DNA of 64,000 nt from Casimicrobiaceae bacterium (GCA_046714435.1 JBKKAZ010000221.1:7988-71987); one strand, 5' to 3'; positions 8,827-38,345 are shown, numbered from the stretch's first letter. Notes: generated by a model from the sequence alone, not told the origin. Translations and numbers: made by a program.

Positions 8827-8885
8827 CCTATGCCGGTGCCAACAGCGCAAAGGTCATCGAGGAAACTCCTGATCTGCACAAGTTC

Positions 8886-8910
8886 GCCCCCGACGCATTG
8901 CGTCGGGGGC
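8886..8910. terminator. GC-rich hairpin downstream of degP
   Basis: GCCCCCGACGC-ATT-GCGTCGGGGGC is a perfect 11-bp stem. There is no U-tract. Confidence 0.45.
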
Positions 8911-8945
8911 GTCTAATGAGTCCCTGGGTTCTTGTTTACCTGCGA

Positions 8946-17342: not shown

Positions 17343-18179
17343 CTAGCGGCCATGCGGCCGCTTGCCGCCGAGCTTGCGCGTCAGGTCCTCCGCAATGTGC
17401 GCGACCAGCGGCCCGAGATGCTTGATGCGCTCGTCGGTGAGCCGTGACACGGGGCCGGCCAGCGAGATCGCGCCGAGGCCCTCGGCGTGCTCGTCGTAGA
17501 TCGGGCTCGCGACGCAGCGCGTGCCGACCAGGTGTTCCTCGTCGTCGAACGAGAATCCGCGCTGCCGGATCACCTTGAGACTCGCCCACATCGTCTCCGG
17601 CGACGTGATCGTGTTTTCGGTGATCCGCGGCAGGCCCTTGACTTTGAGGATCGCGTCGATCTGTTCGTCGGGCAGCGTGGCGAAGATCGCCTTGCCGACG
17701 CCCGAAGCGTGCAAAGGCACGCGGCTTCCCAGGCGGACGATGGTGCGCATGGTCTCGTTGCACTGAACTTGGTCGATGAACACGGCCTCGGTGCCATCCA
17801 GGATCGCGAGATTGGCGGTCTCGCCGGCCTGCTCCATCAGCCGCCGCATGTACGGGTGGCTCTGGGCGACCCAGTCGCGCGAGGCGAGGAAGCTCGAACC
17901 GACGGTAAACGCGTGCAGCCCCACGTACCACAGGCTCAGGGCATCGTCCTGGTGGACGTAACCGCCATGCTCGAGGGTCGCGAGCAGCCGGTGGGCGGTC
18001 GACGGCGGGAGTTCGGTGCGGTGCGCGACCTCGGTGAGGGTAAGGCCGCCCTCGGCGCGCGCGAGGCATTCGAGGATCGAGAGCCCGCGGGTCAGGCTTT
18101 GCACCTGGCCCGAGCCGGTTGACGACTCTGACGGCGTGCGGCCGCGGCGTCGGGGTGGGGCGGAGCGGTGGAGCGTCAT
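17343..18179 (-). CDS. IclR-family regulator, AllR/BhcR-like
   Basis: QSLTRGLSILE HTH, GETANLAILD, IDQVQC..TMR, LHASGVGKA and GFSFDDEEH. ATG overlaps the upstream FadR stop (ATGA). Confidence 0.88.
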   Translation of the reverse strand: MTLHRSAPPRRRGRTPSESSTGSGQVQSLTRGLSILECLARAEGGLTLTEVAHRTELPPSTAHRLLATLEHGGYVHQDDALSLWYVGLHAFTVGSSFLASRDWVAQSHPYMRRLMEQAGETANLAILDGTEAVFIDQVQCNETMRTIVRLGSRVPLHASGVGKAIFATLPDEQIDAILKVKGLPRITENTITSPETMWASLKVIRQRGFSFDDEEHLVGTRCVASPIYDEHAEGLGAISLAGPVSRLTDERIKHLGPLVAHIAEDLTRKLGGKRPHGR

Positions 18180-18889
18180 CGCAGTGCGCGCAATCGTTCC
18201 CAGCTGTTGGCGAGGTGGGTACGCATCGCGGCGCGTGCGGCATCGGAATCGCCGCGCGAAATCGCCCTGACGACGTCCCGGTGCTCGCGGTTGACCTGCT
18301 GCAGATACTCGGAACGATCCTTTCGCGCCAGCGCCGCGCTGTTGATACGGGTGCGCGGAATGATGGTGCGGCCCAGATGCCGCAGCAGGTCGGCGAAGTA
18401 ATGATTGCGTGAGGCCTCGGCGACGCACAGGTGGAATTCGAAGTCGGGATCGACGGCGTCGTCGCCGGTGCAGGCTGCACGGGCGATCGCCTCCACCAGC
18501 GCGTTCATGCGGGCGACCTGACTGTCGCTGCGGCGCTTGGCGGCTAGCGCCGCCGCCTCGGTCTCGAGGCCGATCCGCAATTCGAGCAGCGCGAGCACTT
18601 CCTCGAGCGTCGCTCCGTCGACCTGCACGGCCGGAAACGGCACCGTGTCCGGCGGGAGTTCACCCGCGAACGAGCCAATGCCGCGTCGCGTCTTGACCAG
18701 GCCGCGTGCACGCAGCTGCGAGATTGCCTCGCGCACCACGGTCCGGCTCACACCGTAGATTCCGACCAGTTCGCCCTCGCTGGGAAGCTTGGAGCCTTCG
18801 GCGAATTCGCCCGATGCGATGCGTTCGCAGAGGGCGGCGACCACCTTCTCGGTCAGGTTCGGGCGGTCGAGAGCGAGTGTCGCAGGCAC
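18176..18889 (-). CDS. GntR/FadR-family transcriptional regulator
   Basis: GSKLPSEGELV..YGVSRTVVREAIS.L wHTH plus an FCD domain (DFEFH..VA.ASRN). Confidence 0.92.
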   Translation of the reverse strand: MPATLALDRPNLTEKVVAALCERIASGEFAEGSKLPSEGELVGIYGVSRTVVREAISQLRARGLVKTRRGIGSFAGELPPDTVPFPAVQVDGATLEEVLALLELRIGLETEAAALAAKRRSDSQVARMNALVEAIARAACTGDDAVDPDFEFHLCVAEASRNHYFADLLRHLGRTIIPRTRINSAALARKDRSEYLQQVNREHRDVVRAISRGDSDAARAAMRTHLANSWERLRALR

Positions 18890-18996
18890 GATGGCGGCTT
18901 AGCCGACGGGTCCAGGGCGCGGATCGGTTCGACCCGGTCCCAGGAGCAAGGCGCGCCGGGAGTTGACGAGCCCCACAAGGCGCATGATACCCTTCC

Positions 18997-19012
18997 TGTA
19001 CGACATCATACA
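18997..19012. promoter_or_regulatory. Putative FadR-family operator
   Basis: Imperfect palindrome TGTACGACATCATACA (12/16 self-complementary) in the divergent region between the FadR gene and udh. Confidence 0.6.
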
Positions 19013-19037
19013 AGTTGCACCGGTTTCGATCTCTTCC

Positions 19038-19868
19038 GTGATAGCTGCGCCATCCGCCGTCGAGTACCAACGAGTGTTGTTGACCGGTGCGTCCGGTGGT
19101 CTCGGACGGGTCCTGCGGTCCTACCTTCGCGGTCTCGTACCGACGCTCCGCGTAAGCGATCTCGCCGCGCCCGGCGACGTCCAGGCCAGTGAGGAAAGCG
19201 TCGGTTGTGACCTCGGCGATAGCGCGGCGGTCATGAACCTGGTCTGTGGCGTCGACGCGATCGTGCATTTCGGCGGGATCTCGGTGGAAGACTATTTCGA
19301 CCGTTTCCTGCACGCCAACATCGCCGGCACGTTCAACCTCTACGAGGCCGCGCGAAAGCAGGGCGCCAAGCGCGTCGTGTACGCGAGTTCGAGCCAGGTG
19401 ACCGGCTTCTATCCGACCAGCGAGGTTGTCGACCCGACGATGCCGGTGCGTCCGTCGAGCCTCTACGCGCTCACCAAGTGCTTCGGCGAGGACCTCGCCC
19501 AGCTATTCTTCGACCGCTACGGCATCGAAACGGTGTGCCTGCGCATCGCCATGTGCTTTCCCGAGCCAAGCACGCACCGAATGCTGCGCTCGTACCTGAG
19601 CTACCACGATCTGTGCGAACTGGTGCGCTGCGCCCTCGCCGCGCGCGACGTCGGCCACAGCATCGTCTACGGCGTGTCCAACAACCGCGATCTGCTTTGG
19701 CGCAACCCGAACGCGTCACGGATCGGATGGATGCCGCGCGACAGTTCCGAGCCCTTCCGCTCGAAAGTCGAGGCCGCGCAGCCGGTCCCGGATCTCGCCG
19801 ATGTGCAGAACCGCTTCCATGGCGGCCGCTTCACCCAGGACGGCCCGTTCGAGGACCGGCCCCTGTGA
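19038..19868 (+). CDS. udh: Uronate dehydrogenase-like extended SDR (start uncertain)
   Basis: VLLTGASGGLG, DAIVHFGGISVE, YxxxK (YALTK) and LRI..CFPEP...RML..YLSY.DL, which match the Udh family. Confidence 0.65.
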   Translation: MIAAPSAVEYQRVLLTGASGGLGRVLRSYLRGLVPTLRVSDLAAPGDVQASEESVGCDLGDSAAVMNLVCGVDAIVHFGGISVEDYFDRFLHANIAGTFNLYEAARKQGAKRVVYASSSQVTGFYPTSEVVDPTMPVRPSSLYALTKCFGEDLAQLFFDRYGIETVCLRIAMCFPEPSTHRMLRSYLSYHDLCELVRCALAARDVGHSIVYGVSNNRDLLWRNPNASRIGWMPRDSSEPFRSKVEAAQPVPDLADVQNRFHGGRFTQDGPFEDRPL

Positions 19869-20056: not shown

Positions 20057-21055
20057 ATGCAACGTAGTCGTCGCAAGTTCGTGGGGTCGACCGCGGCTCT
20101 GGCCGCGGCCGCATCGCTGGGACCGGTGGTTCCGGCTTACGGGCAGCAGAAGTCCGTGTGGAAGGCGTCCGACGTGCACCCGCTCGGCTATCCGACGGTT
20201 GAGGCGATCGTTCGCATGGGCACGAAACTCGAGACCCAGACCAAAGGCCGGATTTCGATCCAGATGTTCCCGCTGATGCAGCTCGGCGGCGAAAAGGAGA
20301 TGATTGAGCAGGCTCAGGTGGGCGCGCTGCAGATCGCCCGCATCTCGGTAGGCGCGATGGGTCCGGTCGTCGACGATCTCAACGTGTTCAACCTGCCGTT
20401 CATCTTCCGTGACGAAGCTCAAATGCGGAAGGTGATCGACGGCCCGATCGGCACCGAACTGCTCGAGCGCGTCAATAACTCGCCGGACACGAAACTCATC
20501 GTCCTGGGTTGGATGGATGCCGGGACCCGCAACGTCTACGCCAACAAGCCGGTGACCAAGCCCGAGGATCTGAAGGGCATGAAGATCCGGATGATGGGCA
20601 ACCCCATCTTCGTCGAGACTATGAATGCGATGGGCGGCAACGGGGTCGCGATGGGATTCAACGAGTTGATGGGCGCGCTGCAGACGGGCGTCGTCGACGG
20701 TGCCGAGAACAACCCGCCGACATTGCTCGCCCAGAACCATTACACCGTCAGCAAGGTGTACAGCCTCACCGGTCACCTGATCATTCCCGAGATCTTCGTG
20801 TTCTCCAAGCGCAACTGGGACACGCTGTCGAAGGAGGATCAGGCGATGCTCAAAAAGCTCTCTCGCGAGGCGCAGTTGGAGCAGCGCGTGCTGTGGGATG
20901 CGTACGTCGGCGAGGCCACAGCCAAGCTCAAGGCGGCCGGCGTCCAGTTCGTACCGGTGGACAAGCCGGCGTTCTACAAGGCCACGCAGCCGGTGCGCGA
21001 CAAGTACGGCTCCAAGTACGTCGCGCTGCTGAAGAAGATCGAGGACACCAAGTAG
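20057..21055 (+). CDS. dctP: TRAP transporter substrate-binding protein (sugar-acid type)
   Basis: Tat-like leader, ASDVHP.GYPTVEA, QLGGEKEMIEQAQVGALQI, KIRMM and VDGAENN. RBS AAGGAGG. Confidence 0.9.
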   Translation: MQRSRRKFVGSTAALAAAASLGPVVPAYGQQKSVWKASDVHPLGYPTVEAIVRMGTKLETQTKGRISIQMFPLMQLGGEKEMIEQAQVGALQIARISVGAMGPVVDDLNVFNLPFIFRDEAQMRKVIDGPIGTELLERVNNSPDTKLIVLGWMDAGTRNVYANKPVTKPEDLKGMKIRMMGNPIFVETMNAMGGNGVAMGFNELMGALQTGVVDGAENNPPTLLAQNHYTVSKVYSLTGHLIIPEIFVFSKRNWDTLSKEDQAMLKKLSREAQLEQRVLWDAYVGEATAKLKAAGVQFVPVDKPAFYKATQPVRDKYGSKYVALLKKIEDTK

Positions 21056-21061
21056 CAGCAC

Positions 21062-21646
21062 TTGTCGAAGGCACGCGGACCGAGTGGATCGCGTGCTTTC
21101 TTTTTGCCCGGAGTGGCCTTGACCAACGCGAAGCGGCGCTACCAGCAGGCGATGGAGTGGCTGTATCTCGCCTGTGTCGTGGTCTCCGGCACGGCGCTGG
21201 TGGTAATCACGCTGATCATTCCGCTCGGCGTGTTCATGCGCTATTTCATGAACAGCGCGTTGTCGTGGCCCGAGCCGGCCTCGGTGCTCATGATGGTGAT
21301 GTTCTCGTTCCTCGGCGGGGCTGCCGTGTACCGTGCCAATGTGCACGTCGCAGTTGAGGCGTTGCTCAACGCCGTGAAGCCCGCCACGCGCGGCTTGATG
21401 CTCCGGGCTGTCGATGTGTGCATCCTCGTGACGGCGCTGTTCATGCTCTGGTACGGCGTGCAGCTCTGTCTCACGACACGGCACTCGACGATCGCCGAGT
21501 TTCCCTGGCTGTCGGTGGCGTACGCCTACCTTCCGATCCCAGTCGCGGGCCTGTTCACGCTGCTGTTCCTGATCGAGCGGGTGTGGGTCGGCAGCCCGCC
21601 GCCGACGTCGTTCATGTACACCGACCAGGCCACCGAACTGGAATAG
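21062..21646 (+). CDS. dctQ: TRAP small permease (start uncertain)
   Basis: Four TM segments, VFMRYFMN.ALSWPEP and HVAVE, located between dctP and dctM. Confidence 0.88.
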   Translation: MSKARGPSGSRAFFLPGVALTNAKRRYQQAMEWLYLACVVVSGTALVVITLIIPLGVFMRYFMNSALSWPEPASVLMMVMFSFLGGAAVYRANVHVAVEALLNAVKPATRGLMLRAVDVCILVTALFMLWYGVQLCLTTRHSTIAEFPWLSVAYAYLPIPVAGLFTLLFLIERVWVGSPPPTSFMYTDQATELE

Positions 21647-21648
21647 TC

Positions 21649-22932
21649 GTGGACACCCTCATCCTGCTCGGTTCGTTCGCCGTCCTGTGCGCGCTGGGGG
21701 TGCCGGTCGCCTACGCGCTCGGCCTCGCCGCGCTCATCGCCGCGTTCTGGGTGGACATCCCGCTCGAAGCGGTGATGCTCAAGATTTCGGACGGCACCGA
21801 CGACTTCGCGCTGCTCGCCATTCCGTTCTTCGTGCTCGCCGGCGCGATCATGGCCGAAGGCGGCATGGCTCAGCGCCTGATCAACCTCGCGCGGGTCTTC
21901 GTCGGCTTCATTCGCGGTGGGCTCGCGCTGGTGAACATCCTGGCCAGCACGTTGTTCGGCTGCATCTCGGGTTCCTCTGTCGCCGATACGGCCTCGATCG
22001 GCAGCGTGATGATCCCGCAGATGGTGAAGGCAGGATTTCCACGTGTATTCGCCACCAACGTGACCATCTGCGGATCAGTGCAGGCGCTGCTGATTCCGCC
22101 CTCGCACAACGCCGTCATCTACTCGCTCGCGGCCGGCGGCACGATCTCGGTTGCCCACCTGTTTCTCGCCGGCATCTTTCCCGGGCTGCTGTTCGGCCTG
22201 TGCCTGATCGGGCTGGTGCTGTGGATCTCGCACAAGCGCGGCTATCCGAAGGGCGAGGCGGTCGCGCTGCGCGCGGTGCCAAAGATCGTCTGGGATGCGT
22301 TGCTGGGATTGGTGACGGTCATAATCATCATGGGTGGCATCCTCTCCGGCGTGTTCACGCCGACCGAATCGGCCGCGGTGGCGTGCGTCTACGCTTTCCT
22401 GGTGACGTTCCTGGTCTACCGCGACTACAAGTGGCGCGACCTGCCGCACCTGATCCACCGCGTGGTGAAGACGGTCGCGATGGTGATGATGCTGATCGGC
22501 TTCTCGGTCGCCTTCGGCTACATGATGGCGATCATGCAGATCCCGGCCAAGATCACCGCGTTTTTCCTCGGCATCTCGGACAACAAGTACGTGTTCCTGC
22601 TGCTGGTCAACATTCTGCTGCTGGTGCTGGGGACGTTCATGGATCTGGCGCCGATGCTGCTGATCTGCACGCCGATCTTCATGCCGGTGATTCTGAAGCT
22701 CGGCATCGATCCGGTGCATTTCGGCATGATCATGATCCTGAATCTCGGCATCGGATTGATCACGCCGCCGGTGGGGCCGACGCTGTTCGTCGGCTGCGCG
22801 ATCGGCAAGGTGACGATGGAGCAGGTGTCGAAGGAGCTATGGCCCTTCTATGGCGCGATGTGCGTTGCCTTGCTGCTAGTGACCTACATTCCTGCGCTTT
22901 CGCTGTGGCTGCCGAAGGGCATCGGGTTCTGA
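21649..22932 (+). CDS. dctM: TRAP large permease
   Basis: LLAIPFFVLAGAIM, FGCISGSSVAD, LLIPPS, GVFTPTES and DPVHFGMIM..NL.IGLITPPVG. Confidence 0.94.
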   Translation: MDTLILLGSFAVLCALGVPVAYALGLAALIAAFWVDIPLEAVMLKISDGTDDFALLAIPFFVLAGAIMAEGGMAQRLINLARVFVGFIRGGLALVNILASTLFGCISGSSVADTASIGSVMIPQMVKAGFPRVFATNVTICGSVQALLIPPSHNAVIYSLAAGGTISVAHLFLAGIFPGLLFGLCLIGLVLWISHKRGYPKGEAVALRAVPKIVWDALLGLVTVIIIMGGILSGVFTPTESAAVACVYAFLVTFLVYRDYKWRDLPHLIHRVVKTVAMVMMLIGFSVAFGYMMAIMQIPAKITAFFLGISDNKYVFLLLVNILLLVLGTFMDLAPMLLICTPIFMPVILKLGIDPVHFGMIMILNLGIGLITPPVGPTLFVGCAIGKVTMEQVSKELWPFYGAMCVALLLVTYIPALSLWLPKGIGF

Positions 22933-22974
22933 CCCGCCCGTCGCGGGCATCGGGGTAGGGCGGCGCCCCTATCG

Positions 22975-25401
22975 TCAGCCGTCGGCAACGACCGGCGTCA
23001 CCACATGGCATTCGCCGGCGATGTCGACTTCGAATTTCGCGGCGCGCAGCATGGCATCGGTAAGCGGGATGTCGCTGCGGGCATAGCCCATCGCGACGGC
23101 ACGGCCCAGCTTGCGACTGTAGCCCGCCGATGTGAGTTCGCCCGCGGCGCGCCCATCCATCAGGATCGGTTCGCCGCCCCACGGGAAGGCGGCGGCATCG
23201 TCGAACGTGAAGCTCAGCAAACGTTTGCTGAGCCCCTTCGCGGCCTGCGCGCGTAGCGCCTCGCGGCCGATGAAATCCGCCGGCTTGTCCAGCCTCGCCG
23301 CGAAACCGATGCCGGCTTCGAGCGGCGTCTCGTCCGGCGACAGCTCGGCGCCCCAGGCGCGACGCCCAGCCTCGATCCGCAATGCGTCGATCGTGTAGTA
23401 CCCGGCGTCGCGCAACCCGTGGGCGGGACCCGCGTCGTGCAGCGCGTCGTAGAGTGTCAGGCACTGCTCGGCGGGGACGTAGAGCTCGAACCCGGGGCCG
23501 CCGACATAGCTCATCCGGGCCGCGCGAACCCGCGCGTAGCCAACGTCGACGTCGCGCGCCGCGGAAAACGCAATCGCCGCGCGCGAAAAGTCGTCGCGCG
23601 ACAGGCTGCCAAGCAGCGCCTCGGCCTTCGGTCCCATGACCGACAGCACCGACCACGCGCCGGTCACGTCGACGAGCGCCGCGTGCTCGTCGACTTCGAC
23701 GTGCCTCTCGATCCAGGCAAAGTCGCGTGTCGCCTGGCCCGATCCGGTGACGATGAAGAATTCACGCGGACCGAGCCGGGTGACCGTGAGATCGCTCTCG
23801 ATTCCGCCGCGCGTGTTCAGCATCGCGGTGTAGACGATCCGGCCAGGTGCGACGTCCATCTCGTTCGCGCAAAGCCGCTGCAGCACGGCGAGCGTGTCGC
23901 GGCCCTTGAGCACGAATTTCGAGAACGAAGTCTGATCGAAGACCACGACATCTTCGCGGCAGGCGCGCTGCTCGTCGAGAACATTCGGCAGCCAGCCCGG
24001 CGTGTCGAGCGTGGCGGGGGGCTCGACCTGGCGCGGCGCCAGGAAATAGTTCGCGCGCTCCCAGTTGAGCTTGGTGCCGAAGACCGCGCCTTTCGCCTTC
24101 AGGCGGTCGTAGAGCGGCGAGCGCCGCAGCGGCCGTACCGTCTGCAATTCCTCGCGTGGCCAGCGCATCGCGTAGTGCAGGCCGAGCGTCTCCACGGTGC
24201 GGTCGGCGAGGTGGTGGCGGTTCACGTGAAAGGGCGCGAAGCGACGCAGGTCGACGTCCCACAAGTCCACCGGCGCCTCACCGTCGGCGACCCATTGCGC
24301 GATCAGCTTGCCTGCGCCGCCGGAATTCGCGATCCCCGCCGAGTTGAAGCCGGCGCAGACGAAGAATCTCCGCAGCCGAGGCGCTTCGCCAAGGATGAAG
24401 TTGCCGTCGAGCGTAAAGCTTTCGGGACCGTTGAGCAGCATTTTCACCGGCGCCGTTTCGAGGCAAGGCGTGCGATGGATCGCGTTGCGCATCAGGATTT
24501 CGAACTGGTCCCAGTCCTCGGGCAGCAGCTGGAACTCGAACCGCGGCGGAATCGGATCGACGCTCCAGGGCTTGGCTTGCGGCTCGAAGCCGCCCATCAC
24601 CAGGCCGCCGACTTCTTCCTTGTAGTAGATGAAGCCGTCGGGGTCGCGGATCACCGGCAGGTCGGGCGTGACGCCTTCGATCCTGTCGGTGACGAGGTAG
24701 AAGTGCTCGGCGGACCACAGCGGCACTTCGACGCCCGCGAGCAGTCCCAGCGCGCGAGCCCATTGGCCCGCGCAATTGACGAGGGCGTCGCAAGCGATGC
24801 TGCCCGTCTCGTCTCCGCGTGCCCAGCTCACGCCGGCTACGGCGCCATCCCGGGTGTCGATCGCGGTGACGCGGACTTCCTCGAAGATCGCAGCACCTCC
24901 ATTGCGGGCGCCCTTGGCGAGTGACATCGTCAGATCGGTCGGGTTCGCCTTGCCGTCACCCGGTATCCACACCGCACCTGCGAGGTCGTCGGTTCGCAGA
25001 ATCGGGGCGATGCGTGCGGCTTCGGCGGGTGAGATGAACTCGAACTCGACGCCGAAGCTCTTCGCGCGAGCCATTTGCCGTTTCATCAGCTTCATCCGCT
25101 CGGGCGTCTTCGCGACATTGAGCGATCCGCATTGCTTCCATCCGGTGGCGAGTCCGGTTTCGCTTTCGAGCGACGCATACAGGTCGATGCCATAACGACT
25201 CATTCGTGTCGCGTTGCGCGTCGCGCGCGTCTGGCCCACCAGTCCGGCGGCGTGCCAGGTCGTGCCGCAGGTCAGTCGCCCCTGTTCGAGCAGCACGACG
25301 TCGCGGATTCCGAGCTTGGTCAGGTGGTAGGCGGTCGAGCAGCCGGCAATGCCGCCGCCGACGACGATGACCCGAGCCTGGGTAGGGAGTGAGTTATTCA
25401 T
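22975..25401 (-). CDS. GcvT-family FAD/folate-dependent N-demethylating oxidoreductase (DMGDH/SARDH-like), copy 1
   Basis: 808 aa. GGGIAG Rossmann fold, GTTWHAAGLVG (covalent-FAD His motif), GPESFTLDG, FDQTSFSK, THF-binding GcvT domain and LRIEAG.R.WG.EL. Confidence 0.88.
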   Translation of the reverse strand: MNNSLPTQARVIVVGGGIAGCSTAYHLTKLGIRDVVLLEQGRLTCGTTWHAAGLVGQTRATRNATRMSRYGIDLYASLESETGLATGWKQCGSLNVAKTPERMKLMKRQMARAKSFGVEFEFISPAEAARIAPILRTDDLAGAVWIPGDGKANPTDLTMSLAKGARNGGAAIFEEVRVTAIDTRDGAVAGVSWARGDETGSIACDALVNCAGQWARALGLLAGVEVPLWSAEHFYLVTDRIEGVTPDLPVIRDPDGFIYYKEEVGGLVMGGFEPQAKPWSVDPIPPRFEFQLLPEDWDQFEILMRNAIHRTPCLETAPVKMLLNGPESFTLDGNFILGEAPRLRRFFVCAGFNSAGIANSGGAGKLIAQWVADGEAPVDLWDVDLRRFAPFHVNRHHLADRTVETLGLHYAMRWPREELQTVRPLRRSPLYDRLKAKGAVFGTKLNWERANYFLAPRQVEPPATLDTPGWLPNVLDEQRACREDVVVFDQTSFSKFVLKGRDTLAVLQRLCANEMDVAPGRIVYTAMLNTRGGIESDLTVTRLGPREFFIVTGSGQATRDFAWIERHVEVDEHAALVDVTGAWSVLSVMGPKAEALLGSLSRDDFSRAAIAFSAARDVDVGYARVRAARMSYVGGPGFELYVPAEQCLTLYDALHDAGPAHGLRDAGYYTIDALRIEAGRRAWGAELSPDETPLEAGIGFAARLDKPADFIGREALRAQAAKGLSKRLLSFTFDDAAAFPWGGEPILMDGRAAGELTSAGYSRKLGRAVAMGYARSDIPLTDAMLRAAKFEVDIAGECHVVTPVVADG

Positions 25402-25417
25402 CGTCACATTGCAATCA

Positions 25418-26269
25418 TCATAGCCGCAGCGCCGCGACCCCGGCGGCGACACCGATCGCTCCCGCGAGCCGCCGCCAGCCGAAACTTTCCTTGAGGAACA
25501 AGGTGCCCATCAGCGCAGCGAACACGACCGACACTTCGCGCAGTGCCGCCACGATGGCGATCGGCGCGAGTGTCATCGCCCACAGCACGATCGCGTAGGC
25601 CGCGATGCTCGCTGATCCGCCCAGCAACCCGCGTCGCCAACGTGGCGCAAGGTAGGCGGCGGCCTGCCGGCCGCGTGTCCATGTCACCCACGCGATGAAC
25701 GGCAGGGCATCGAGGGCCGTCAACCAGACGGCGTACGACCATGGGTTGCCAGCAGCGCGTGCGCCCGCCCCGTCGATCAGCGTGTAGGTCGCGATGATGA
25801 GCGCGTTCGCCAGCGCCCAGCCGGCCGCGGCAAGCGTATGGCGGCCGCTCGCGAACCAGGCGATGGTGATGATGCCCGCCGAGATCAAGGCGATGCCGAG
25901 CAGGGTTTCGAGGCGCAACCGCTCGGACAGGAACACTATGCCGAGCAGCGTCACTATGAGCGGCGCGACGCCGCGCATCAGCGGATAGGCGAACGACAGG
26001 TCGCCGCGGTGGTAGGCGCCTGCCAGCGCGATGTAGTAGGCGAAGTGAACCACCATCGAGGCGAGCACGAACGGCCAGGCGGCCGCCGCCGGCAGCGGGA
26101 TGAACGGCAGCAGCGGCAGGCACACGGCGCACCCGCCGGCGATGATCAGGACGGTGTCGAGCGTCGCGTCGCCGGCCGACGACTTGAGCAGCGCGTTCCA
26201 CAGCGCGTGCAGAAAGCCCGCGCCCAGCACGGCGAGCGTGACGCCGAGGGAGATATCGACGGCCGGCAC
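25418..26269 (-). CDS. EamA/DMT transporter of the phosphonate-associated type
   Basis: AGFLHALWNALLK, AY..GDLSFAYPLMRG.AP and AALREVSVVFAAL. About 10 TM segments. Sits in the phn operon. Confidence 0.82.
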   Translation of the reverse strand: MPAVDISLGVTLAVLGAGFLHALWNALLKSSAGDATLDTVLIIAGGCAVCLPLLPFIPLPAAAAWPFVLASMVVHFAYYIALAGAYHRGDLSFAYPLMRGVAPLIVTLLGIVFLSERLRLETLLGIALISAGIITIAWFASGRHTLAAAGWALANALIIATYTLIDGAGARAAGNPWSYAVWLTALDALPFIAWVTWTRGRQAAAYLAPRWRRGLLGGSASIAAYAIVLWAMTLAPIAIVAALREVSVVFAALMGTLFLKESFGWRRLAGAIGVAAGVAALRL

Positions 26270-26284
26270 CGGCGTGGTCGGGAG

Positions 26285-28006
26285 TCAGACGCTGCGCGAC
26301 GCGCGCTTGGGAAGATCGGCGTCGGGATCCGCCTCGTCCTCGGGCGCGGCGAGCGGCGAACTCTCCAGCGGCGTCATCAGCCGCGTGTGCGCAAGCACGC
26401 CCGCCTCCTCGAGGATCGGATAGGCCACCGAACAAACGTGCGAGTTGATTCGGCGCAGATCGGAGATCAGGTCGAGATGCAGCGACGAGGTTTCAATGCT
26501 TTCGATGGTGTTGCCGGCGAGCCGGACCAGATGAGAATTGGCGTAGGCGCGTTCGAGATCACGCACCAGCACCTTCTGCGCGAGCAGTTCTTGCGCGCTC
26601 TTCAGGTCGCGGTGGAGGAACACGCTGGTCGCAAGCCGCAGATTGGCGACCAGGCGGCCGTGCAGATCCACGATCTCGCCCATGCCGGCGTCGGAGAAAT
26701 TGCGCCCCTTCTCGATCTTCTTGTCCTCGATGTCGGCGAGAATGCGCTCGATGATATCGCCGACCTGTTCGAGGTTGATGGTAAAGGACACGATGTCCGC
26801 CCAGCGGCGGCTCTCGCGCTCGTCGAGGGCGCCGCGCGGCACCTTGGTGAGGTAGAGCTTGACCGCGGTATAGATCTCGTCGACCACGTCGTCCATCTTG
26901 CGCAGGCGATGGGCGAGTGCGCGGTCATTGGTCTGCAGCACGGTCAGCATGCCACGCAGCATCTCGTCGATCACGTCGGCAATGCGAAGCGTTTCACGCG
27001 CGGCGTTGCCGATCGCCAGCGCCGGGGTCTCCAGCGCCGATGGGTCCAGGTGTCGCGGGCGCGCCTGGTTCGCGGCCGGCGGCGGCGAGGGCAGCAATCG
27101 CTCCGCGTAGGCCGCGATGCGGTTGGTAAAGCCCAGCAGGAACAGCGCCAGCACGACATTGAACGCGAGGTGGAACAGAACCACTTCGTGCGCGGGCGAG
27201 ACCTGCGCGCGCTCGACCAGCACGCCGGCGTAGCCGACCAGCGGCATGGCGATCGCGCAGCCGATCAGCTTGAACATGAAGTTGCCGAGCGTGACCCGGC
27301 GCGCCTCCGGCTCGGTGTGAAGCGTCGAGAGCATGCCGAGCAGCCCGCTGCCGAGGTTCGCGCCCAGCACCAGGCCGATCGCGACCGGCAAGCCGATCAG
27401 GTTGAGCGATGCGAAGGTTGCCACCAGCAGCACGACGGCGAGGCTCGAGTAGACGGTGATCGTCACCAGCGCGCCGACCAGCACGTCAAGCATCACGTCT
27501 CCGGTCAGCGAGGCGAACAGCACCTTCACGCCGTCGGTGCCGACGACCGGCTGCGCCGAGGTTCGAATCCATTGCAGCGCGAACAGGATGAGTCCAAGCC
27601 CGATCAAGATCCGGCCGAACTGGCCGGCAGCCGACGCCTGCCAGCGCAGGAACAGCGTGACGCCAGCGATCAGCAATACCGGCGCCAGGAAGCCGAGATC
27701 GAAGGACAGTACCAGCGTGACGATCGCGGTGCCGACATCGGCGCCGAGCATCACCGCCAGCGCGGGCGCAGTCGCAATCAGCCCCTGGCCGGCAAACGCG
27801 GCGACGATCAGCGCGGTCGCGGTACTGCTTTGCAGCAGCCCGGTCACGGCCAGGCCGGCGGCGAACGCGGAGCCGCGCTTCGACACGCTGTGCCTCAACA
27901 GCCGGCGCAGTAAGCCGCCGTACCGGCGCAGGATGCCCTTTCGCACCAGGTGCGTGCCCCAGACCAGCAGCGCGACGCCGGCGAGCAGGTCGAGCAGCAT
28001 TTTCAT
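26285..28006 (-). CDS. Na+/Pi cotransporter family protein with C-terminal PhoU-like domains (YjbB-like)
   Basis: Repeated QSSTAT / YSSLAVVL motifs, GADVGT and GANLGS, and helical PhoU repeats (LRKMDDVVD, LEQVGDIIE). ATGA overlap with pbfA. Confidence 0.88.
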   Translation of the reverse strand: MKMLLDLLAGVALLVWGTHLVRKGILRRYGGLLRRLLRHSVSKRGSAFAAGLAVTGLLQSSTATALIVAAFAGQGLIATAPALAVMLGADVGTAIVTLVLSFDLGFLAPVLLIAGVTLFLRWQASAAGQFGRILIGLGLILFALQWIRTSAQPVVGTDGVKVLFASLTGDVMLDVLVGALVTITVYSSLAVVLLVATFASLNLIGLPVAIGLVLGANLGSGLLGMLSTLHTEPEARRVTLGNFMFKLIGCAIAMPLVGYAGVLVERAQVSPAHEVVLFHLAFNVVLALFLLGFTNRIAAYAERLLPSPPPAANQARPRHLDPSALETPALAIGNAARETLRIADVIDEMLRGMLTVLQTNDRALAHRLRKMDDVVDEIYTAVKLYLTKVPRGALDERESRRWADIVSFTINLEQVGDIIERILADIEDKKIEKGRNFSDAGMGEIVDLHGRLVANLRLATSVFLHRDLKSAQELLAQKVLVRDLERAYANSHLVRLAGNTIESIETSSLHLDLISDLRRINSHVCSVAYPILEEAGVLAHTRLMTPLESSPLAAPEDEADPDADLPKRASRSV

Positions 28007-29367
28007 GCCGCTACGGCTCCGTGGCTGCGCCGCGACACGCTCGCGAGCGCGGCGTCGATGATCTCGAACGCGCGATCGAGCGCCGGCTCGTCGATGATCA
28101 GCGGCGGCGACAGCGTCAGCACGTTGCCCTGGCCGATTTTGAACGACAGTCCGCGCGACAGGCACTCGTACATGGTCTGCTCGGCCTCGTCCCGCGCCGG
28201 TGTGCCGTCGGCACGCGTGAGCTCGATGCCGAGCAGGAGTCCGATGCCGCGCACGTCGCCGATCAGCCGGTGGCGCGCCTTCAGCGCCTGCATCCGTTCC
28301 AGGGCCCGCACGCCGAGACGCCGTGACCGCTCGAGCAGGCGCTCGTCCTCGATGACCTGCAGCGTTGCCAGTGCAGCGGCGCAGCCCACCGAGCTTTTTT
28401 CGTGGGTGTAGTGGCCGAGTGCCAGCTTCGAGGCGACATCGAGGTCCCGGCGGGCGATCAGCGCCGCCATCGGGAACACCGCGCCGCCCAGGCCCTTGCC
28501 GAGCACGACCATGTCAGGCACGACATCGTAGTGCTCGAACGCAAACATCGTGCCGGTGCGCCCCAGCGCGATCGGCACTTCGTCGAAGATCAGCAGCGTG
28601 CCGTGCCGGTCGCAGGCCTTGCGCAGGCAGCGATAATACTCGGGCGGCGGAATCTGGACGTCGGTACAGCGCACCGTTTCCACGATCACCGCCGCGACGT
28701 CTTCCTCCTTGTCGAGCATGTACGCGACATAGTCCGCGCAACGATTATTGCAAACACCGCCGCAGCCAAAGCTGCAACTGCGCGGATCGCATGGCGGCGC
28801 GTGCTCGGCGCCGGGCAGCAACGGCCCGATGCCCTTGCGGAACACCGCTTCGCCGCCGATCGAGATCGCATCCAGGGATGCGCCGTGGAAACTGTCCCAC
28901 ATCGAGATCGTCTTGTGACGGTCGGTGGCAACGCGCGCCAGCTTCAGCGCCATGCCGATCGCGAGCGCGCCCCCCGGCGCGAACAGCACCTTGCCCAGCG
29001 GGTCGGGCGCGAGCAGGGCGAGCCTTTCCGCGAGTTCCACCGCGTGGGCGTTGGTGAAGCGGCGCGGCGAGAACGGCAGCGAGTCGAGCGCGGCCTTGAC
29101 CGCGTTGACGACCTGCGGGTGACGGTAGCCGACCTGGTGGACGTTGTTGCCGTGGAAGTCCATGTAGCGCCGGCCTTCGACGTCGGTGAGCCAGATGCCC
29201 TCGGCTTCGACCAGCGTGTCGAGGCAGGGCGTGGACAGCGACTGGTGCAGGAACGCCGCACGGTCGCGATCGAGCCAGTCACGCGTCGCCGGACCGATGT
29301 TGGCCTTGTCCCAGGCGCGACGCCGCGAGGAGAGGTTGATGTCACCCTCCGCCGCTTCGTTCACCAT
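28003..29367 (-). CDS. pbfA: (R)-1-hydroxy-2-aminoethylphosphonate ammonia-lyase (class III aminotransferase fold)
   Basis: [61 protein letters not shown] and [16 protein letters not shown] are PbfA-specific segments. Confidence 0.88.
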
Positions 29368-30818
29368 GGCAGCGAGTAGGTCTTGGTGTTGGTGAAGCTC
29401 TTCATCGCTTCCTGCACGCCTTCCTTGTAGCCCAGGCCCGAGTCCTTGATGCCGCCGAACGGGGTCAGCTCCAGTCGATAGCCCGGCACTTCGCGGATGT
29501 TAACGGTGCCGACGTTGAGTTCGCTTACCAGCCGCGTGATGTAATCGAGGCGGTTGGTGCATACCGACGACGACAGCCCGTAGTCGGTGCCATTGGCGAT
29601 CCGGATGGCGTCCTCCAGGGTCTTGAAGCGGATGACCGGCGAGACCGGTCCGAAGGTCTCGGTCCTGACCACGTTCATCTGCGGATCGACGTGGTCCAGC
29701 ACGGTGGGCGAGTACACGGCGCCGCGCCGCAGGTTCCCGACCAGCAATTTCGCACCGCGCGCCACCGCGTCGTTGACCCGCGCCTCGAAGCTCATCGCCG
29801 CCGCCTGGTCGATCACCGTACCCATCTCGTTGGCCGGATCCATCGGGTCGCCGTAGGTCCATCGCTCGGTGAGCGCGACCAGCCGCTCGACGAACGCGTC
29901 AGCGACGGACTCCTGCACCAGCATGCGCTTGACCGCCGTGCAGCGCTGGCCCGAGTTTTTGTACGATCCATTCGCGGCCAGCGCCGCCGCCTCGTCAAGG
30001 TCGGCGTCCTCCATGACGATGAGCGGGTCGTTGCCGCCCAGTTCCAGCACCTGGCGCTTGTAGACGGCCTTGCCTGCGATGTACTTGCCGACCGCGACGC
30101 CGCCGGTAAACGTCACCAGGTCGACCGACGGGTCGGTCAGCATCGCATCGGCGATTTCGCGCGGGTCGCCGGTAACCACCGAAAACATCTCCGGCGGCAA
30201 TCCGGCTTCGTAGAGGATGTCCGCGAGCAGCAGCGCCGACAGCGGCGTCTTCTCGGCGGGCTTGAGCACCATCCGGTTGTTGGTCGCGACCGCCGGCGCC
30301 ACCTTGTGCGCGACCTGGTTCAACGGATGATTGAACGGTGTGATGGCACTGATGACGCCCAGCAGCGGCTCGCGCAGCGTGTAGATCTTGCGCGACTTGC
30401 CGTGCGGCGTCAGGTCGCAGGAGAACACCTGTCCGTCGTCGGTCAGAGCGGCGTTGCCGGCGAACACGAACACGTCGCAGGCGCGGCCGACTTCGTAGAG
30501 TGAATCCTTCTTGCTGATCCCGCATTCGGCGGTGATCAGGTCCGAGATGGCATCGGCACGGCTGCGGATCAGTTCCGCGGTTCGCTGGCAGATCCGGTAG
30601 CGGTCGTAGCGACTGAGCTTCGGCTTGTAAGCCTTCGCCACGGCGAACGCATGCTGGATGTCGTCGACGCCGGCCTTCGGCACTGTGCCGACCAACGCGC
30701 CGGTGTACGGATTGTGCACTTCGATGACGCGATCATGGCCCACCTTCACGCCGGCAATGCGCATCTTCTCGCGCAGCACGTGGCCCTGCTTGAGTTCAGC
30801 AAGTGAGTTCATGTGCAA
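29361..30818 (-). CDS. phnY: Phosphonoacetaldehyde dehydrogenase
   Basis: ALDH fold with [45 protein letters not shown] and [25 protein letters not shown]. Adjacent to phnA. Confidence 0.93.
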
Positions 30819-30821
30819 CCC

Positions 30822-32895
<2,074 letters not shown>

Positions 32896-32921
32896 GTTGC
32901 GATTTAACGCGGTTCGGGTGT

Positions 32922-32937
32922 AGATTGTCAACAATCT
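32922..32937. promoter_or_regulatory. Palindromic GntR-type operator in the phnR/ABC divergent region
   Basis: AGATTGT-CA-ACAATCT has perfect 7-bp arms and lies 26 bp upstream of the phnR start. Confidence 0.7.
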
Positions 32938-33137
32938 GCAATCGGCAGGAGTTAGCATGCGTGCCGCGCACCCGATTCTGGACCTTGCGGGGGATGACCG
33001 CCCGCGCGGCCCGTTGCCGGTACCGTGGGCTGCGAGTAGCATCCTCGGACGCTGATCCCGGAGCCGCTGCGCAGGTTGCCCCGGCGCTCCCGTTCGCAAG
33101 CCGGCCGTTCGTATTTTCCCGACCAAGGAGTCCCGTG

Positions 33138-34166
33138 ATGAAACTTGCCCGTGGTTTGTCCCTGGCGGCAATCGCCGCCGCTGCATTCGCGTTGGTTGCG
33201 CCGGCCGCGGCGCAGAAGACCGAGCTGCTGGTCTACACCGCGCTCGAAACCGACCAGCTCAAGGCGTACGCGGAAGCCTTCAACAAGGCGGTGCCGGACG
33301 TCGAGGTCAAGTGGGTGCGCGATTCCACCGGCGTGGTCACCGCCAAGCTGATCGCGGAGAAGGCCAACCCGCAGGCGGACGTCATCTGGGGATTGGCGGC
33401 GACCAGCCTCCTGGTGATGGACAACGAAGGCATGCTGCAGGGCTACGCGCCGAAAGGCCTGGCGGCGTTGGGGAGTCAGTACAAGGACACCAAGAGCCCG
33501 CCGAACTGGTGGGGGATGGATGTCTGGGGCGCGACCGTATGCTTCAACACCGTCGAGGCCGCCAAAACCAACCTTCCCAAGCCCGAGTCCTGGCAGGACC
33601 TGACCAAGCCGGTCTACAAGGGCAAGATCGTCATGCCCAACCCGGCCTCCTCCGGCACCGGCTTTCTTCAGGTGACGTCTTGGCTGCAGATCTTTGGTGA
33701 ACAGAACGGCTGGAAGTATATGGACGCGCTGCACGAGAACATCGCGCAGTACACCCATTCGGGCAGCAAACCCTGCGTCCAGGCCGGCAGCGGCGAATTC
33801 CCGATCGGCATCTCGTTCGAGTACCGCGCCAACACCATCAAGGCCAAGGGCGGTCCGATCGACCTGGTCTTCCCCAAGGAAGGGCTGGGTTGGGACATGG
33901 AGGCGTTCGGCATCATGAAGGGCACCAAGAAGCTCGATGCCGCGCGGAAGCTCGCCGATTGGGCGGCGTCGCGCCCGGCGATGGAACTCTATGCCAAGAG
34001 CTACGCGATCGTCGCGTTGCCGGGCGTCGCGCAACCGCTACCCAATGTTCCCGCCGACTATGAAAAGCGGCTGGTGAAGAACGACTTCGCGTGGGCGGCC
34101 AAGAACCGTGACCTCATCCTCGCCGAATGGTCGAAGCGCTACGACGCCAAGTCGGAGAAGAAGTAA
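33138..34166 (+). CDS. aepX: 2-aminoethylphosphonate ABC transporter substrate-binding protein (AepX/PhnS2-like)
   Basis: Signal peptide, VYTALETDQL, WVRDSTGVVTAKL.AEKANPQADVIWGLAA, MPNPASSGTG, YTHSGSKPC and ISFEYR. RBS AAGGAG. phn context. Confidence 0.85.
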   Translation: MKLARGLSLAAIAAAAFALVAPAAAQKTELLVYTALETDQLKAYAEAFNKAVPDVEVKWVRDSTGVVTAKLIAEKANPQADVIWGLAATSLLVMDNEGMLQGYAPKGLAALGSQYKDTKSPPNWWGMDVWGATVCFNTVEAAKTNLPKPESWQDLTKPVYKGKIVMPNPASSGTGFLQVTSWLQIFGEQNGWKYMDALHENIAQYTHSGSKPCVQAGSGEFPIGISFEYRANTIKAKGGPIDLVFPKEGLGWDMEAFGIMKGTKKLDAARKLADWAASRPAMELYAKSYAIVALPGVAQPLPNVPADYEKRLVKNDFAWAAKNRDLILAEWSKRYDAKSEKK

Positions 34167-34237
34167 CCGCCGTCCGGTGGCGGCGCCCCGCATCGGCCGG
34201 GGTGCCGCGCCACCTCGCGTAGAGGAGATGCGACCGC

Positions 34238-35311
34238 GTGGCTTTGGATGAGATCTACCTGCGGCTCGAGGGCATCAACAAGAGTTTCGGCAAGTTCGTC
34301 GCGTTGCAGGACATCGGTCTCGAGGTCAGGCGCGGCGAACTCCTGGTGCTGCTCGGCCCCTCGGGCTGCGGCAAGACGACGCTGCTGCGGATCGTCGCCG
34401 GCCTCGAGTCCCAGGATGGGGGCGCCATCGTTCAGGACGGCAAGGACATCTCCCGGCTCCCCGCGATCAAGCGCGATTACGGCATCGTCTTTCAGTCCTA
34501 CGCGCTGTTTCCGAATCTCACCGTCCACGACAACGTCGCCTACGGTCTCGTCAACCGGCGCCAGGGCCGCGTCGCGATCGAATCGCGGGTGCAGGAGCTC
34601 CTGAAGCTCGTCGGCCTGTCGGAGTCGGGGTCCAAGTATCCGGGGCAGCTCTCCGGCGGCCAGCAGCAACGCATCGCAGTCGCCCGCGCGCTTGCGTCGG
34701 CGCCCGGATTGCTGCTGCTCGACGAGCCGCTGTCGGCGCTGGACGCGTTGGAGCGGGTGCGCCTGCGCGGCGAAGTTCGTGCGCTGCAGCAGCGGCTTTC
34801 GGTGACCACGGTCATGGTGACTCACGATCAGGAGGAGGCGCTATCGATGGCCGACCGCATCGTCGTGATGAACGCGGGCCATATCGAGCAGGTCGGCACC
34901 CCGCGCGAAATCTATGGCGAGCCGGCGACGCCGTTCGTTGCCGACTTTGTCGGCAAGATCAATGTCCTGCCGGCCGTGGCGGAAGGCGACGGGCGCTTCC
35001 GCGTCGGCAATGTTTCGCTGGCCACGACCTGCCGCAACGTCGCCGCGGGTACGGCCGTAAAGCTGTACCTGCGCCCCGAGGAGATCACGGTGAACCCGAA
35101 CGGCGCGGCGACGGGAAACACGCTCGCAGCCACCGTCGCCAAAGTGGAATTCCTGGGCGCGTTTTGCATGGTGGGCATCTCGCTCGAGGCGGCGGGCGCG
35201 CCGGCGCTGGTGGCAAACGTGTCCCGGCAGGCCGTTGACGCGTCCCGAATAGCGCAGGGCCAGAGCGTCACCATCAGCGTCCCGCCCGCGGCCCTGCGCG
35301 TACTGGGCTGA
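34238..35311 (+). CDS. Aminophosphonate ABC transporter ATP-binding protein
   Basis: GPSGCGKTT, LSGGQQQR, LLLDEP, VTHDQEEA and a TOBE tail. Confidence 0.92.
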   Translation: MALDEIYLRLEGINKSFGKFVALQDIGLEVRRGELLVLLGPSGCGKTTLLRIVAGLESQDGGAIVQDGKDISRLPAIKRDYGIVFQSYALFPNLTVHDNVAYGLVNRRQGRVAIESRVQELLKLVGLSESGSKYPGQLSGGQQQRIAVARALASAPGLLLLDEPLSALDALERVRLRGEVRALQQRLSVTTVMVTHDQEEALSMADRIVVMNAGHIEQVGTPREIYGEPATPFVADFVGKINVLPAVAEGDGRFRVGNVSLATTCRNVAAGTAVKLYLRPEEITVNPNGAATGNTLAATVAKVEFLGAFCMVGISLEAAGAPALVANVSRQAVDASRIAQGQSVTISVPPAALRVLG

Positions 35312-35328
35312 ACGCGCCCCCGCAAGCG

Positions 35329-37050: not shown

Positions 37051-37067
37051 TGGAACGGCAAACCGAC

Positions 37068-37176
37068 GTAAACGAGTGAACAAGCGAACAAGCGAACAAG
37101 TGAATGAAAGCGCGCGATGCGTGCGTTGTTCATTTTTTCACCCGTTCACCCGTTCACCCGTTCACCCGTTCACCCA
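37068..37176. repeat. Inverted octamer tandem arrays between the ABC permease and phnW
   Basis: GTAAACGA GTGAACAA GCGAACAA GCGAACAA GTGAATGA (37068-37107), then TTCACCCG x4 + TTCACCCA (37137-37176). Confidence 0.88.
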
Positions 37177-37199
37177 TATACGGCATTCCAGGACGAACC

Positions 37200-38345
37200 A
37201 TGACCCTTCATTCCCGCGATCCGATCCTGCTCACCCCCGGTCCGCTGACGACCTCGCTGCCCACCAAGGCCGCGATGCTCCGCGACTGGGGCTCCTGGGA
37301 CGCGAGCTTCAACGCGGTGACGGCGCGCTTGCGCGCCAAACTCTGCGACGTCATTCACGCGACTGACACCCACGTCTGCGTGCCGATGCAGGGCAGCGGA
37401 ACTTTCTCCGTGGAGGCCGCGATCAATACGCTCGTCCCCCGTCACGGCCACGTGCTGGTGCTGATCAATGGCGCCTACGGCAAGCGGATGGCGAAGCTCA
37501 CCGGGATGATGGGCCGAAAGCTGTCGACGTTCGAGACCGCCGACAGCGTGCCGACAGCGGCAGCCGACGTGAACCGGCTGCTGGCGCAGGACCCGTCGAT
37601 CACCCATGTGGCCCTGGTCCACTGCGAGACGTCGACGGGCATCCTCAATGCGCTGCCGGAAATCGCGGCCGTGGTTGCAGGCCAGGGCAGGCGCCTCGTG
37701 GTCGACGCGATGAGCTCGTTCGGAGCGCTGCCGATCGATGCGCGCAAGACGCCATTCGATGCGCTGGTAGCGGCATCGGGCAAGTGCGTGGAGGGTCCTC
37801 CCGGGATGGGATTCGTGTTCGTGAAAAAGGGCGTGCTCGACCAATGCGCCGGCAATTGCACGTCGCTCGCCCTCGACCTCCACGACCAGTGGGCGTACAT
37901 GGAGAAGACCACCCAGTGGCGTTTCACCCCGCCCACGCATATCGTGGCTGCGCTCGACGCCGCGCTGGACCAATTTGTTGCCGAAGGTGGGCAGCCGGCG
38001 CGCCTGGCGCGCTACACGGCCAACTGCGCGACGCTCGTGCAGGGCATGGCCGAGCTGGGGTTCCGCCCGTTCCTCGAGCCGTCGATCCAGGCGCCGATCA
38101 TCGTCACCTTCCACGCGCCGGCCGATCCGAAATACAACTTCCGCGAGTTCTACGATCGCGTGCGCGACAAGGGCTTCATCCTCTATCCCGGCAAGCTCAC
38201 CGAGGTCGAGACTTTTCGTGTGGGCTGCATCGGCGCGATCGGTCCCGACGAGATGCGCCAGGCGGTGCACGCGGTGCGCGATACGCTCGCGGAGATGGGC
38301 ATCGCGACCGTGGCGCCCGCGTTGGTGCGTCGCGCGGCGGCATAG
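37200..38345 (+). CDS. phnW: 2-aminoethylphosphonate--pyruvate transaminase
   Basis: [69 protein letters not shown] and [10 protein letters not shown]. Confidence 0.96.

Follow-up and report, generated by a model that had tools for sequence, protein, structure and literature searches.

A 64,000-nucleotide stretch of DNA from a Casimicrobiaceae bacterium (GCA_046714435.1, JBKKAZ010000221.1:7988-71987; hereafter the window, G+C content 62-70%) carries a phosphonate catabolic gene cluster whose minus-strand series ends in a flavoprotein resembling dimethylglycine dehydrogenase (DMGDH) and sarcosine dehydrogenase (SARDH). On balance, we lean toward reading this flavoprotein, from its sequence and gene context, as an N-demethylase for N-methylated 2-aminoethylphosphonates (AEPs) that would be linked to electron-transfer flavoprotein (ETF), depend on tetrahydrofolate (THF), and give AEP for the transaminase PhnW. 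The window contains phnW, which is able to receive the proposed product. An earlier inspection of the same DNA (the sequence-only reading) had proposed an aminophosphonate N-demethylase that transfers the methyl group to THF and yields AEP for PhnW, and this proposal is supported by all of the computational tests that we ran.

Enzymes of the DMGDH family oxidize an N-methyl C-N bond and pass the resulting one-carbon unit to THF. Family membership and gene context are the basis on which we infer what the enzyme acts on, where it oxidizes, which acceptor takes the electrons, and what the transporters do. N-methyl-AEP, perhaps along with N,N-dimethyl-AEP or 1-hydroxy forms, would be imported, probably through the Na/Pi-cotransporter-like (NaPi/PhoU) and EamA proteins whose genes always precede that of the flavoprotein. 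The flavin domain would then oxidize the N-methyl C-N bond, the GcvT domain would take up the one-carbon unit as 5,10-methylene-THF, and the electrons would go to ETF rather than to O2. The AEP so formed, or its (R)-1-hydroxy derivative (HAEP), would proceed through PhnW (or, for HAEP, PbfA or the Phn-HD oxygenase), PhnY, and PhnA to acetate and phosphate. N-methyl-AEP is a common natural phosphonate that can approach the abundance of AEP in some organisms and that PhnW is unable to use (PMC10590968). It is also found on invertebrate glycans.

The gene at the center of this proposal is as follows.

22975-25401, minus strand: DMGDH-like flavoprotein of 808 residues, with DAO, FAO_M, GcvT, and GcvT_C domains (ATG at 25401, stop at 22975)

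All four domains are essentially full length (PF01266, residues 10-370; PF16350, 373-428; PF01571, 430-701; PF08669, 726-802), and the flavin and folate profiles are covered from end to end (PF01266, 1-353 of 353; PF01571, 1-255 of 255). The complete GcvT domain reported by the sequence-only reading is thus present, as is the TWHAAG motif for covalent attachment of flavin adenine dinucleotide (FAD), located at T48-W49-H50-A51-A52-G53. No NCBIfam equivalog reached its cut-off for the flavoprotein. Among proteins of solved structure, it is closest to human and rat DMGDH (E 1e-141 to 1e-144), which align end to end, as does dimethylglycine oxidase (DMGO) from Arthrobacter (E 1e-99). An AlphaFold model (pLDDT 82, pTM 0.78) gave full-length Foldseek matches with TM-scores of 0.85 to 4pab and 5l46 and 0.83 to 1pj5, the values referring to the predicted structure.

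Residues were numbered by means of the printed alignment to DMGO. His50, within TTWHAAG, corresponds to DMGO His48 and human His91, which carry the covalent FAD, and is invariant in 137 aligned sequences. Tyr632 and Glu639, likewise invariant, correspond to DMGO Tyr651 and Glu658, which we take to be folate-site residues. Asp537 aligns with the folate-site residue Asp552 of DMGO, whose importance is indicated by the structure of a D552A mutant (Protein Data Bank 3GSI). His233 and Tyr259 match the His225/Tyr259 catalytic dyad of DMGO and are also invariant; the catalytic role of this dyad has been described (PMC5082570). All 81 family orthologues retain these six residues, as do 31 sequences of a second lineage (discussed below) and most outgroups. 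Mean identity is 75% in the GcvT domain versus 78% in the DAO domain; the folate half has been conserved to the same degree as the flavin half and therefore, judged by sequence constraint, is not a relic. An Ala/Ile pattern has been linked by Augustin et al. to dehydrogenases with low O2 reactivity, and a Pro/Val pattern to the oxidase (PMC5082570). HAAG and the Ile of GIAN in the flavoprotein would fit the former, given our assignment of the positions, and ETF alpha is encoded elsewhere in the genome. By every feature tested, the protein belongs to the DMGDH/SARDH/DMGO family.

The flavoprotein gene is the last of seven in series on the minus strand (phnR-phnA-phnY-pbfA-NaPi/PhoU-EamA-flavoprotein, 22975-32895), which diverge from a plus-strand phnS2T2U2W operon (33138-38345) closed by phnW. 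The remaining features of the locus are listed here in coordinate order.

25402-25417, minus strand: 16-nt spacer between EamA and the flavoprotein gene, read from the sequence
25418-26269, minus strand: EamA/DMT permease (PF00892; TIGR03340, 167 bits, cut-off 288)
26285-28006, minus strand: Na/Pi-cotransporter-like protein with two PhoU domains (PF02690 and PF01895; TIGR00704, 253 bits, cut-off 210)
28003-29367, minus strand: pbfA (NF049939, 675 bits, cut-off 525)
29361-30818, minus strand: phnY, phosphonoacetaldehyde dehydrogenase (TIGR03250, 856 bits, cut-off 636)
30819-30919, minus strand: 101-nt phnA/phnY spacer, in which inverted heptamer arrays form a long hairpin (minimum free energy -54.9 kcal/mol, z = -5.98)
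30920-32143, minus strand: phnA, phosphonoacetate hydrolase (TIGR02335, 613 bits, cut-off 408)
32140-32895, minus strand: phnR, GntR/FCD regulator of the Burkholderia phosphonate type (TIGR03338, 284 bits, cut-off 271)
33138-34166, plus strand: phnS2, binding protein of an AEP ABC transporter (TIGR03261, 521 bits, cut-off 393; ATG at 33138)
34238-35311, plus strand: phnT2, ABC ATPase (TIGR03265, 509 bits, cut-off 458)
35329-37050, plus strand: phnU2, fused ABC permease (TIGR03262, 794 bits, cut-off 593)
37104-38345, plus strand: phnW, AEP-pyruvate transaminase (NF010006, 576 bits, cut-off 296; TIGR02326, 499 bits, cut-off 401)

With phnW, phnY, phnA, the AEP transporter, and the regulator all above their curated cut-offs, the locus is an AEP cluster. 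The phnW reading frame starts at 37104 and matches its family from about residue 37; the EamA protein is related to the phosphonate-associated membrane protein TIGR03340 but scores below the threshold of that family. The route from AEP through phosphonoacetaldehyde and phosphonoacetate to acetate and phosphate, catalyzed by PhnW, PhnY, and PhnA, is complete without the flavoprotein, which is therefore accessory.

The gene junctions described in the sequence-only reading were reproduced exactly, with overlaps of 4 nt at phnR/phnA (GTGA), 7 nt at phnY/pbfA, and 4 nt at pbfA/NaPi, followed by gaps of 15 nt from NaPi to EamA and 16 nt from EamA to the flavoprotein gene. A full-length DMGDH/SARDH-like gene does end the phnR-phnA-phnY-pbfA chain. 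Its supposed head-to-head arrangement with dctM was mistaken: dctM lies on the plus strand and ends at 22932, and the minus-strand flavoprotein gene ends at 22975, so that the two are convergent, tail to tail. Nor is the chain tight throughout, as the 101-nt gap between phnA and phnY holds the 100-nt hairpin. This element is absent from related loci, and because phnA and phnY abut there (e.g., in locus L001), it looks like a recent insertion within the operon. A promoter or terminator in the 25402-25417 spacer had been named as the observation that would separate the flavoprotein gene from the operon; no such site was found at or near the spacer. More broadly, consensus scans of the minus strand from 22700 to 33300 returned no promoter- or terminator-like site, such scans being weak in DNA of 67% G+C. 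On the 3' side of the flavoprotein gene, folding was no better than that of shuffled sequences (z 0.27), and no terminator was found. Upstream of the ATG at 25401 there is no clear Shine-Dalgarno sequence; orthologues such as that in L001 carry a GGAGG at this place. Alternative starts are offered by two in-frame GTG codons, at 25407 and 25452, of which the second would overlap EamA.

We surveyed the conservation of this arrangement with one genome per species and scored the neighboring genes by tblastn of the window proteins. The scan yielded 80 species-level loci at 73-81% identity, all from metagenome-assembled genomes labeled Casimicrobiaceae, Burkholderiales, or Betaproteobacteria; counts of loci given below refer to the 56 with at least 8 kb upstream. 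The flavoprotein gene directly follows EamA in all 56, which span seven genera, and the other genes keep the same strand and order (EamA in 56, NaPi in 55, phnY in 55, phnA in 53, phnR in 52). The median EamA-to-flavoprotein spacer is about 34 nt (73 loci). Every orthologue at 73% identity or above lies inside a phn locus, an answer to the concern raised with the original proposal that orthologues might sit mostly elsewhere. In two family genomes the flavoprotein gene is interrupted, by an in-frame TGA or by division between two frames (G442:C11:59715-61874 and G438:C10:283514-285920); these copies are possibly pseudogenes or assembly errors.

Presence of the flavoprotein follows that of the phn cluster. 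Among 61 family genomes, 34 have both the flavoprotein and phnA, one has the flavoprotein only, three have phnA only, and 23 have neither; a single genus accounts for three genomes with both and seven with neither. Rearranged loci show which genes keep company. One genome (G405) retains phnR-phnA-phnY and phnW; its NaPi, EamA, and flavoprotein genes were lost jointly. Another (G453) has phnR-pbfA-NaPi-EamA-flavoprotein with phnS2 and phnW, phnA and phnY being absent, and a third (G436) keeps only NaPi-EamA-flavoprotein, divergent and directly opposite phnS2T2U2-phnW. From these variants, the two transporters and the flavoprotein therefore form a unit that moves together, and its most constant partners, as judged from gene content, are the AEP importer and PhnW.

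A second variable element concerns (R)-HAEP. pbfA is present in 22 of the 56 loci, and the Phn-HD oxygenase TIGR03276 in 19, where it is located between NaPi and EamA (228 bits, cut-off 215). At least one of them occurs in 40 loci (PbfA alone in 21, the HD oxygenase alone in 18, both in one), and in 16 neither was called. The HD oxygenase is almost always found in place of pbfA, so two different (R)-HAEP enzymes, as identified by their profiles, alternate in the same cluster. Examples of the HD oxygenase gene are:

8468-9136 in locus L006
8519-9124 in locus L024
8496-9053 in locus L045
8544-9104 in locus L064

The far flank of the flavoprotein gene varies. An IclR gene on the same strand is usual (46 of 56), and dctM, formate dehydrogenase, or other genes take its place elsewhere. 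In the window, the IclR homologue (80% identical) is at 17346-18107 on the minus strand, displaced from the flavoprotein gene by an inserted block.

18176-18889: GntR regulator
18963-19868: SDR
20057-22932: TRAP transporter dctPQM

The formate dehydrogenase genes, of the NAD type, lie 3' of the flavoprotein gene on the same strand in L024 (14194-16938), L033 (12432-16941), and L005 (13979-16915), and such neighbors fit the disposal of one-carbon units.

Linkage to phosphonate genes was also found in a distant lineage. In a class-wide sample of 400 genomes, no match exceeded 51% identity outside the family, phnW-adjacent copies occurred in one other genus only, and most homologues had no phn genes within 9 kb. 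The exception is a gammaproteobacterium of 51% G+C, in which a DAO-GcvT protein 43% identical to the flavoprotein is encoded 30 nt 3' of phnW, divergent from a phn-type LysR regulator and phnA-phnY. The same phnW/DAO-GcvT adjacency is present in a second genome of that genus. The corresponding clade comprises 120 clusters at 82-100% identity. Contigs of two further members (83-84% identical) retain the order Aldedh-Phosphodiest-LysR / Aminotran_5-(GGDEF)-DAO/GcvT, one contig pair has a PhnS2T2U2-type transporter on the other flank, and overall the linkage is kept at 83-100% identity in contigs from five sources. The tree resolves the family clade as monophyletic, with a long stem, and its sister is a mixed group that includes the gammaproteobacterial lineage. 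The tree and the gene neighborhoods indicate that DAO-GcvT enzymes were recruited into AEP clusters at least twice.

Within the family clade, 30 positions are private, i.e., fixed throughout the clade and found in no outgroup. Two of them, A64 and S68, are small residues on the helix that bears His109 in human DMGDH. The human H109R variant has a Km increased 16-23 fold, and in a cavity analysis the bulkier side chain was modeled as narrowing the substrate tunnel (PMC5082570). Six private changes are to Arg or Lys (R136, K151, R413, R416, R680, and R763). As signs of a changed specificity, the private residues are suggestive only. An HQY to HFY change beside the catalytic His was considered as a clade marker and dropped, because it is shared with sister sequences that are not linked to phn genes.

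Several observations weigh against an aminophosphonate N-demethylase. The gain of Arg and Lys at clade-specific positions was not significant relative to composition (P about 0.11), and only two of the 30 private positions are common to the two phn-linked lineages, so that no common phosphonate signature can be named. In the folate domain, GELG has become GGPG in the clade, with an otherwise universal Glu (DMGO Glu654) replaced by Gly. Co-transcription of the flavoprotein gene with the phn genes is suggested just by spacing and by the weak consensus scans. The nearest relatives outside the family (45-58% identity) are mostly located away from phn loci, one of them in a betaine-like setting next to a Rieske oxygenase and a further DAO-GcvT gene. 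Within the family, the closest homologues that lack phn linkage (57-58% identity, in G410 and G420) likewise have a GbcA-like oxygenase and another DAO-GcvT gene as neighbors, an arrangement typical of betaine catabolism. In most family genomes the flavoprotein is the sole DAO-GcvT protein, and it could also fill a general sarcosine or dimethylglycine role.

These last two points feed the principal alternative, that the flavoprotein is an ordinary sarcosine/dimethylglycine dehydrogenase, either parked there as the last gene of the series or clearing sarcosine or dimethylglycine that the HD oxygenase would release from N-methylated hydroxy-aminophosphonates. The residues of the DMGDH mechanism are all in place, and a heterotetrameric sarcosine oxidase was not found in this genome. 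A parked gene is hard to reconcile with a position after EamA that is fixed across all seven genera, with a presence that tracks the phn cluster and a loss shared with two transporters, and with an unrelated lineage that made the same linkage. The long stem and the 30 private residues, two of them on a helix implicated in substrate access, also speak against it, and this genome already encodes a paralogue whose neighbors resemble those of betaine genes. We therefore regard an ordinary dehydrogenase as unlikely.

The flavoprotein might instead act on another methylated phosphonate, chiefly N-methyl-(R)-1-hydroxy-2-aminoethylphosphonate, and so deliver HAEP to PbfA or Phn-HD rather than AEP to PhnW. 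This substrate must be taken seriously because PbfA and the HD oxygenase, one or both of which are present in the 40 loci counted above, both act on (R)-HAEP, and the G453 locus keeps pbfA and the flavoprotein without phnA or phnY. Against this, neither HAEP enzyme was called in 16 loci (a number that may include missed calls), phnS2T2U2-phnW is the sole partner of the module in the minimal G436 cluster, and the second lineage is joined to phnW. We know of no report that establishes N-methyl-HAEP as an abundant natural product, which also counts against it. Taken together, these points leave the hydroxylated substrate, a variant of the aminophosphonate-demethylase proposal, an improbable one, on a par with the ordinary dehydrogenase.

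The betaine-type paralogue mentioned above belongs to a minus-strand operon that converges on phnW.

38444-39358, minus strand: MenA/UbiA-like prenyltransferase
39372-40652, minus strand: GbcA-like Rieske oxygenase (365 bits, GbcA cut-off 670)
40736-43195, minus strand: second DAO-GcvT paralogue, DMGDH-like, 43% identical to the phn-linked flavoprotein
44203-45063: folD, near the paralogue operon

By its neighbors, the GbcA-like oxygenase and folD, the paralogue would suit betaine-type substrates. Its proximity to phnW invites an extended scheme that mirrors the conversion of glycine betaine through dimethylglycine and sarcosine to glycine, in which the GbcA-like oxygenase would take the first methyl group of N,N,N-trimethyl-AEP, the paralogue (40736-43195) the second, and the flavoprotein (22975-25401) the last, giving AEP, with folD handling the one-carbon units. 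The oxygenase and paralogue are always together in the family; they lie on other contigs in G408, G431, and G453. We lowered our estimate of the full chain, which we now consider quite unlikely, because adjacency of the pair to phnW is confined to this genus and L049. Inclusion of the Rieske and paralogue operon in the phn cluster was rejected on the same ground, the linkage being genus-specific. Elsewhere in the family, L111 (G410:C27, 3022-10076) carries a DAO-GcvT gene (56% identical to the paralogue), a GbcA-like oxygenase gene that is apparently frameshifted with one in-frame TGA, and a DAO-GcvT gene (57% identical to the phn-linked enzyme), and resembles a cluster for three successive demethylations, away from phn loci. 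In a more distant family clade (L084, 8050-11357), a 299-aa gene shares 4 nt with the start of a DAO-GcvT gene, and close by is a gene resembling those of GMC oxidoreductases.

The flavoprotein could also work in the manner of PbfC and PbfD, which oxidize the ethyl C-N bond of N-methyl-AEP to give phosphonoacetaldehyde and methylamine; the formation of AEP and formaldehyde, noted as possible in principle, was tested and excluded for these two enzymes (PMC10590968). Oxidation at this bond is the only chemistry so far demonstrated for FAD enzymes of AEP clusters (PMC10590968). Here it would act on AEP or N-methyl-AEP with release of ammonia or methylamine, the GcvT domain would be idle or structural, and the product would supply PhnY directly. 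We consider such a deamination very unlikely because the folate site is under constraint. The folate domain is held as firmly as the flavin domain, and all 112 sequences of the two phn-linked lineages have the equivalents of Asp552, Tyr651, and Glu658 unchanged. Moreover, phnW, present in every cluster examined, would be redundant for AEP, and the known proteins of this four-domain architecture are N-demethylases.

Least probable is a separately transcribed neighbor held in place by shared ancestry rather than function: all 80 close loci do come from one bacterial family, an IclR gene usually lies 3' of the flavoprotein gene, and consensus promoter scans are insensitive in DNA of high G+C, whereas the far-side flanks vary (IclR, dctM, formate dehydrogenase, and others), NaPi-EamA-flavoprotein stays or goes as a block in the rearranged clusters of G436, G453, and G405, and the second lineage is independent.

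If the N-demethylase proposal is correct, a known enzyme family and a known pathway would be joined by a predicted new activity. PbfB, PbfC, and PbfD are the only known bacterial solution for N-methyl-AEP, and they discard the methyl-bearing nitrogen as methylamine. A THF-dependent demethylase would define a new enzyme activity and provide a second, chemically different entry route, in which the methyl carbon is saved as a one-carbon unit and the nitrogen is left on AEP for transamination. Full-text literature searches returned no description of a DMGDH-type enzyme in phosphonate catabolism or of a THF-dependent AEP demethylase. The gene is fixed in phosphonate clusters of widespread uncultured Betaproteobacteria from soil and wastewater and in those of a large uncultured gammaproteobacterial clade. 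The activity, if real, would alter the way in which metagenomes are interpreted for phosphonate-degrading potential. The group that described PbfC and PbfD has already synthesized the candidate substrates.

Among characterized enzymes, DMGDH (human, 5L46; rat, 4PAB and 4P9S) and SARDH share the same four domains and align over their full length at about 33-38% identity. The likeness extends to the covalent-FAD His of TWHAAG, the His/Tyr dyad, the folate-site Asp/Tyr/Glu, and the Ala/Ile at the positions of low O2 reactivity. Unlike them, the flavoprotein is bacterial and encoded in a phosphonate catabolic operon, has HFY for HQY and GGPG for GELG, and has a phosphonate rather than a carboxylate as its predicted substrate. 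DMGO from Arthrobacter globiformis (1PJ5) and 4-methylaminobutanoate oxidase from A. nicotinovorans are bacterial DAO-GcvT N-demethylases that pass the one-carbon unit to THF, and their catalytic residues map one to one; Joint Genome Institute pipelines in fact label the orthologues "4-methylaminobutanoate oxidase." In contrast to DMGO, identity is about 28%, the genomic context differs, and the Pro of the oxidase HAPG motif is Ala here, and a dehydrogenase is therefore more likely.

Within AEP clusters, TIGR03329, a single-domain aminophosphonate oxidoreductase, is what we take to be the FAD partner recognized by NCBIfam. PbfB, PbfC, and PbfD are FAD-dependent N-methyl-AEP oxidoreductases, single PF01266 proteins (Zangelmi et al. 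2023; PMC10590968) that, as the sequence-only reading had stated, have no folate domain. Like the flavoprotein, they are PF01266 accessories of hydrolytic AEP clusters (phnW with phnX, or phnY/phnA) that widen the range of the PhnW pathway, and their substrate, N-methyl-AEP, is also the likely one of the flavoprotein. The GcvT and GcvT_C domains place the flavoprotein outside this single-domain group, and its predicted products, AEP and methylene-THF, would reflect the opposite regiochemistry. The cluster itself corresponds to the Burkholderia-type phnR/phnS2T2U2/phnW/phnY/phnA arrangement, with every gene except EamA above its NCBIfam cut-off, and differs from it in its partner, here a DMGDH-type enzyme together with an NaPi/PhoU transporter.

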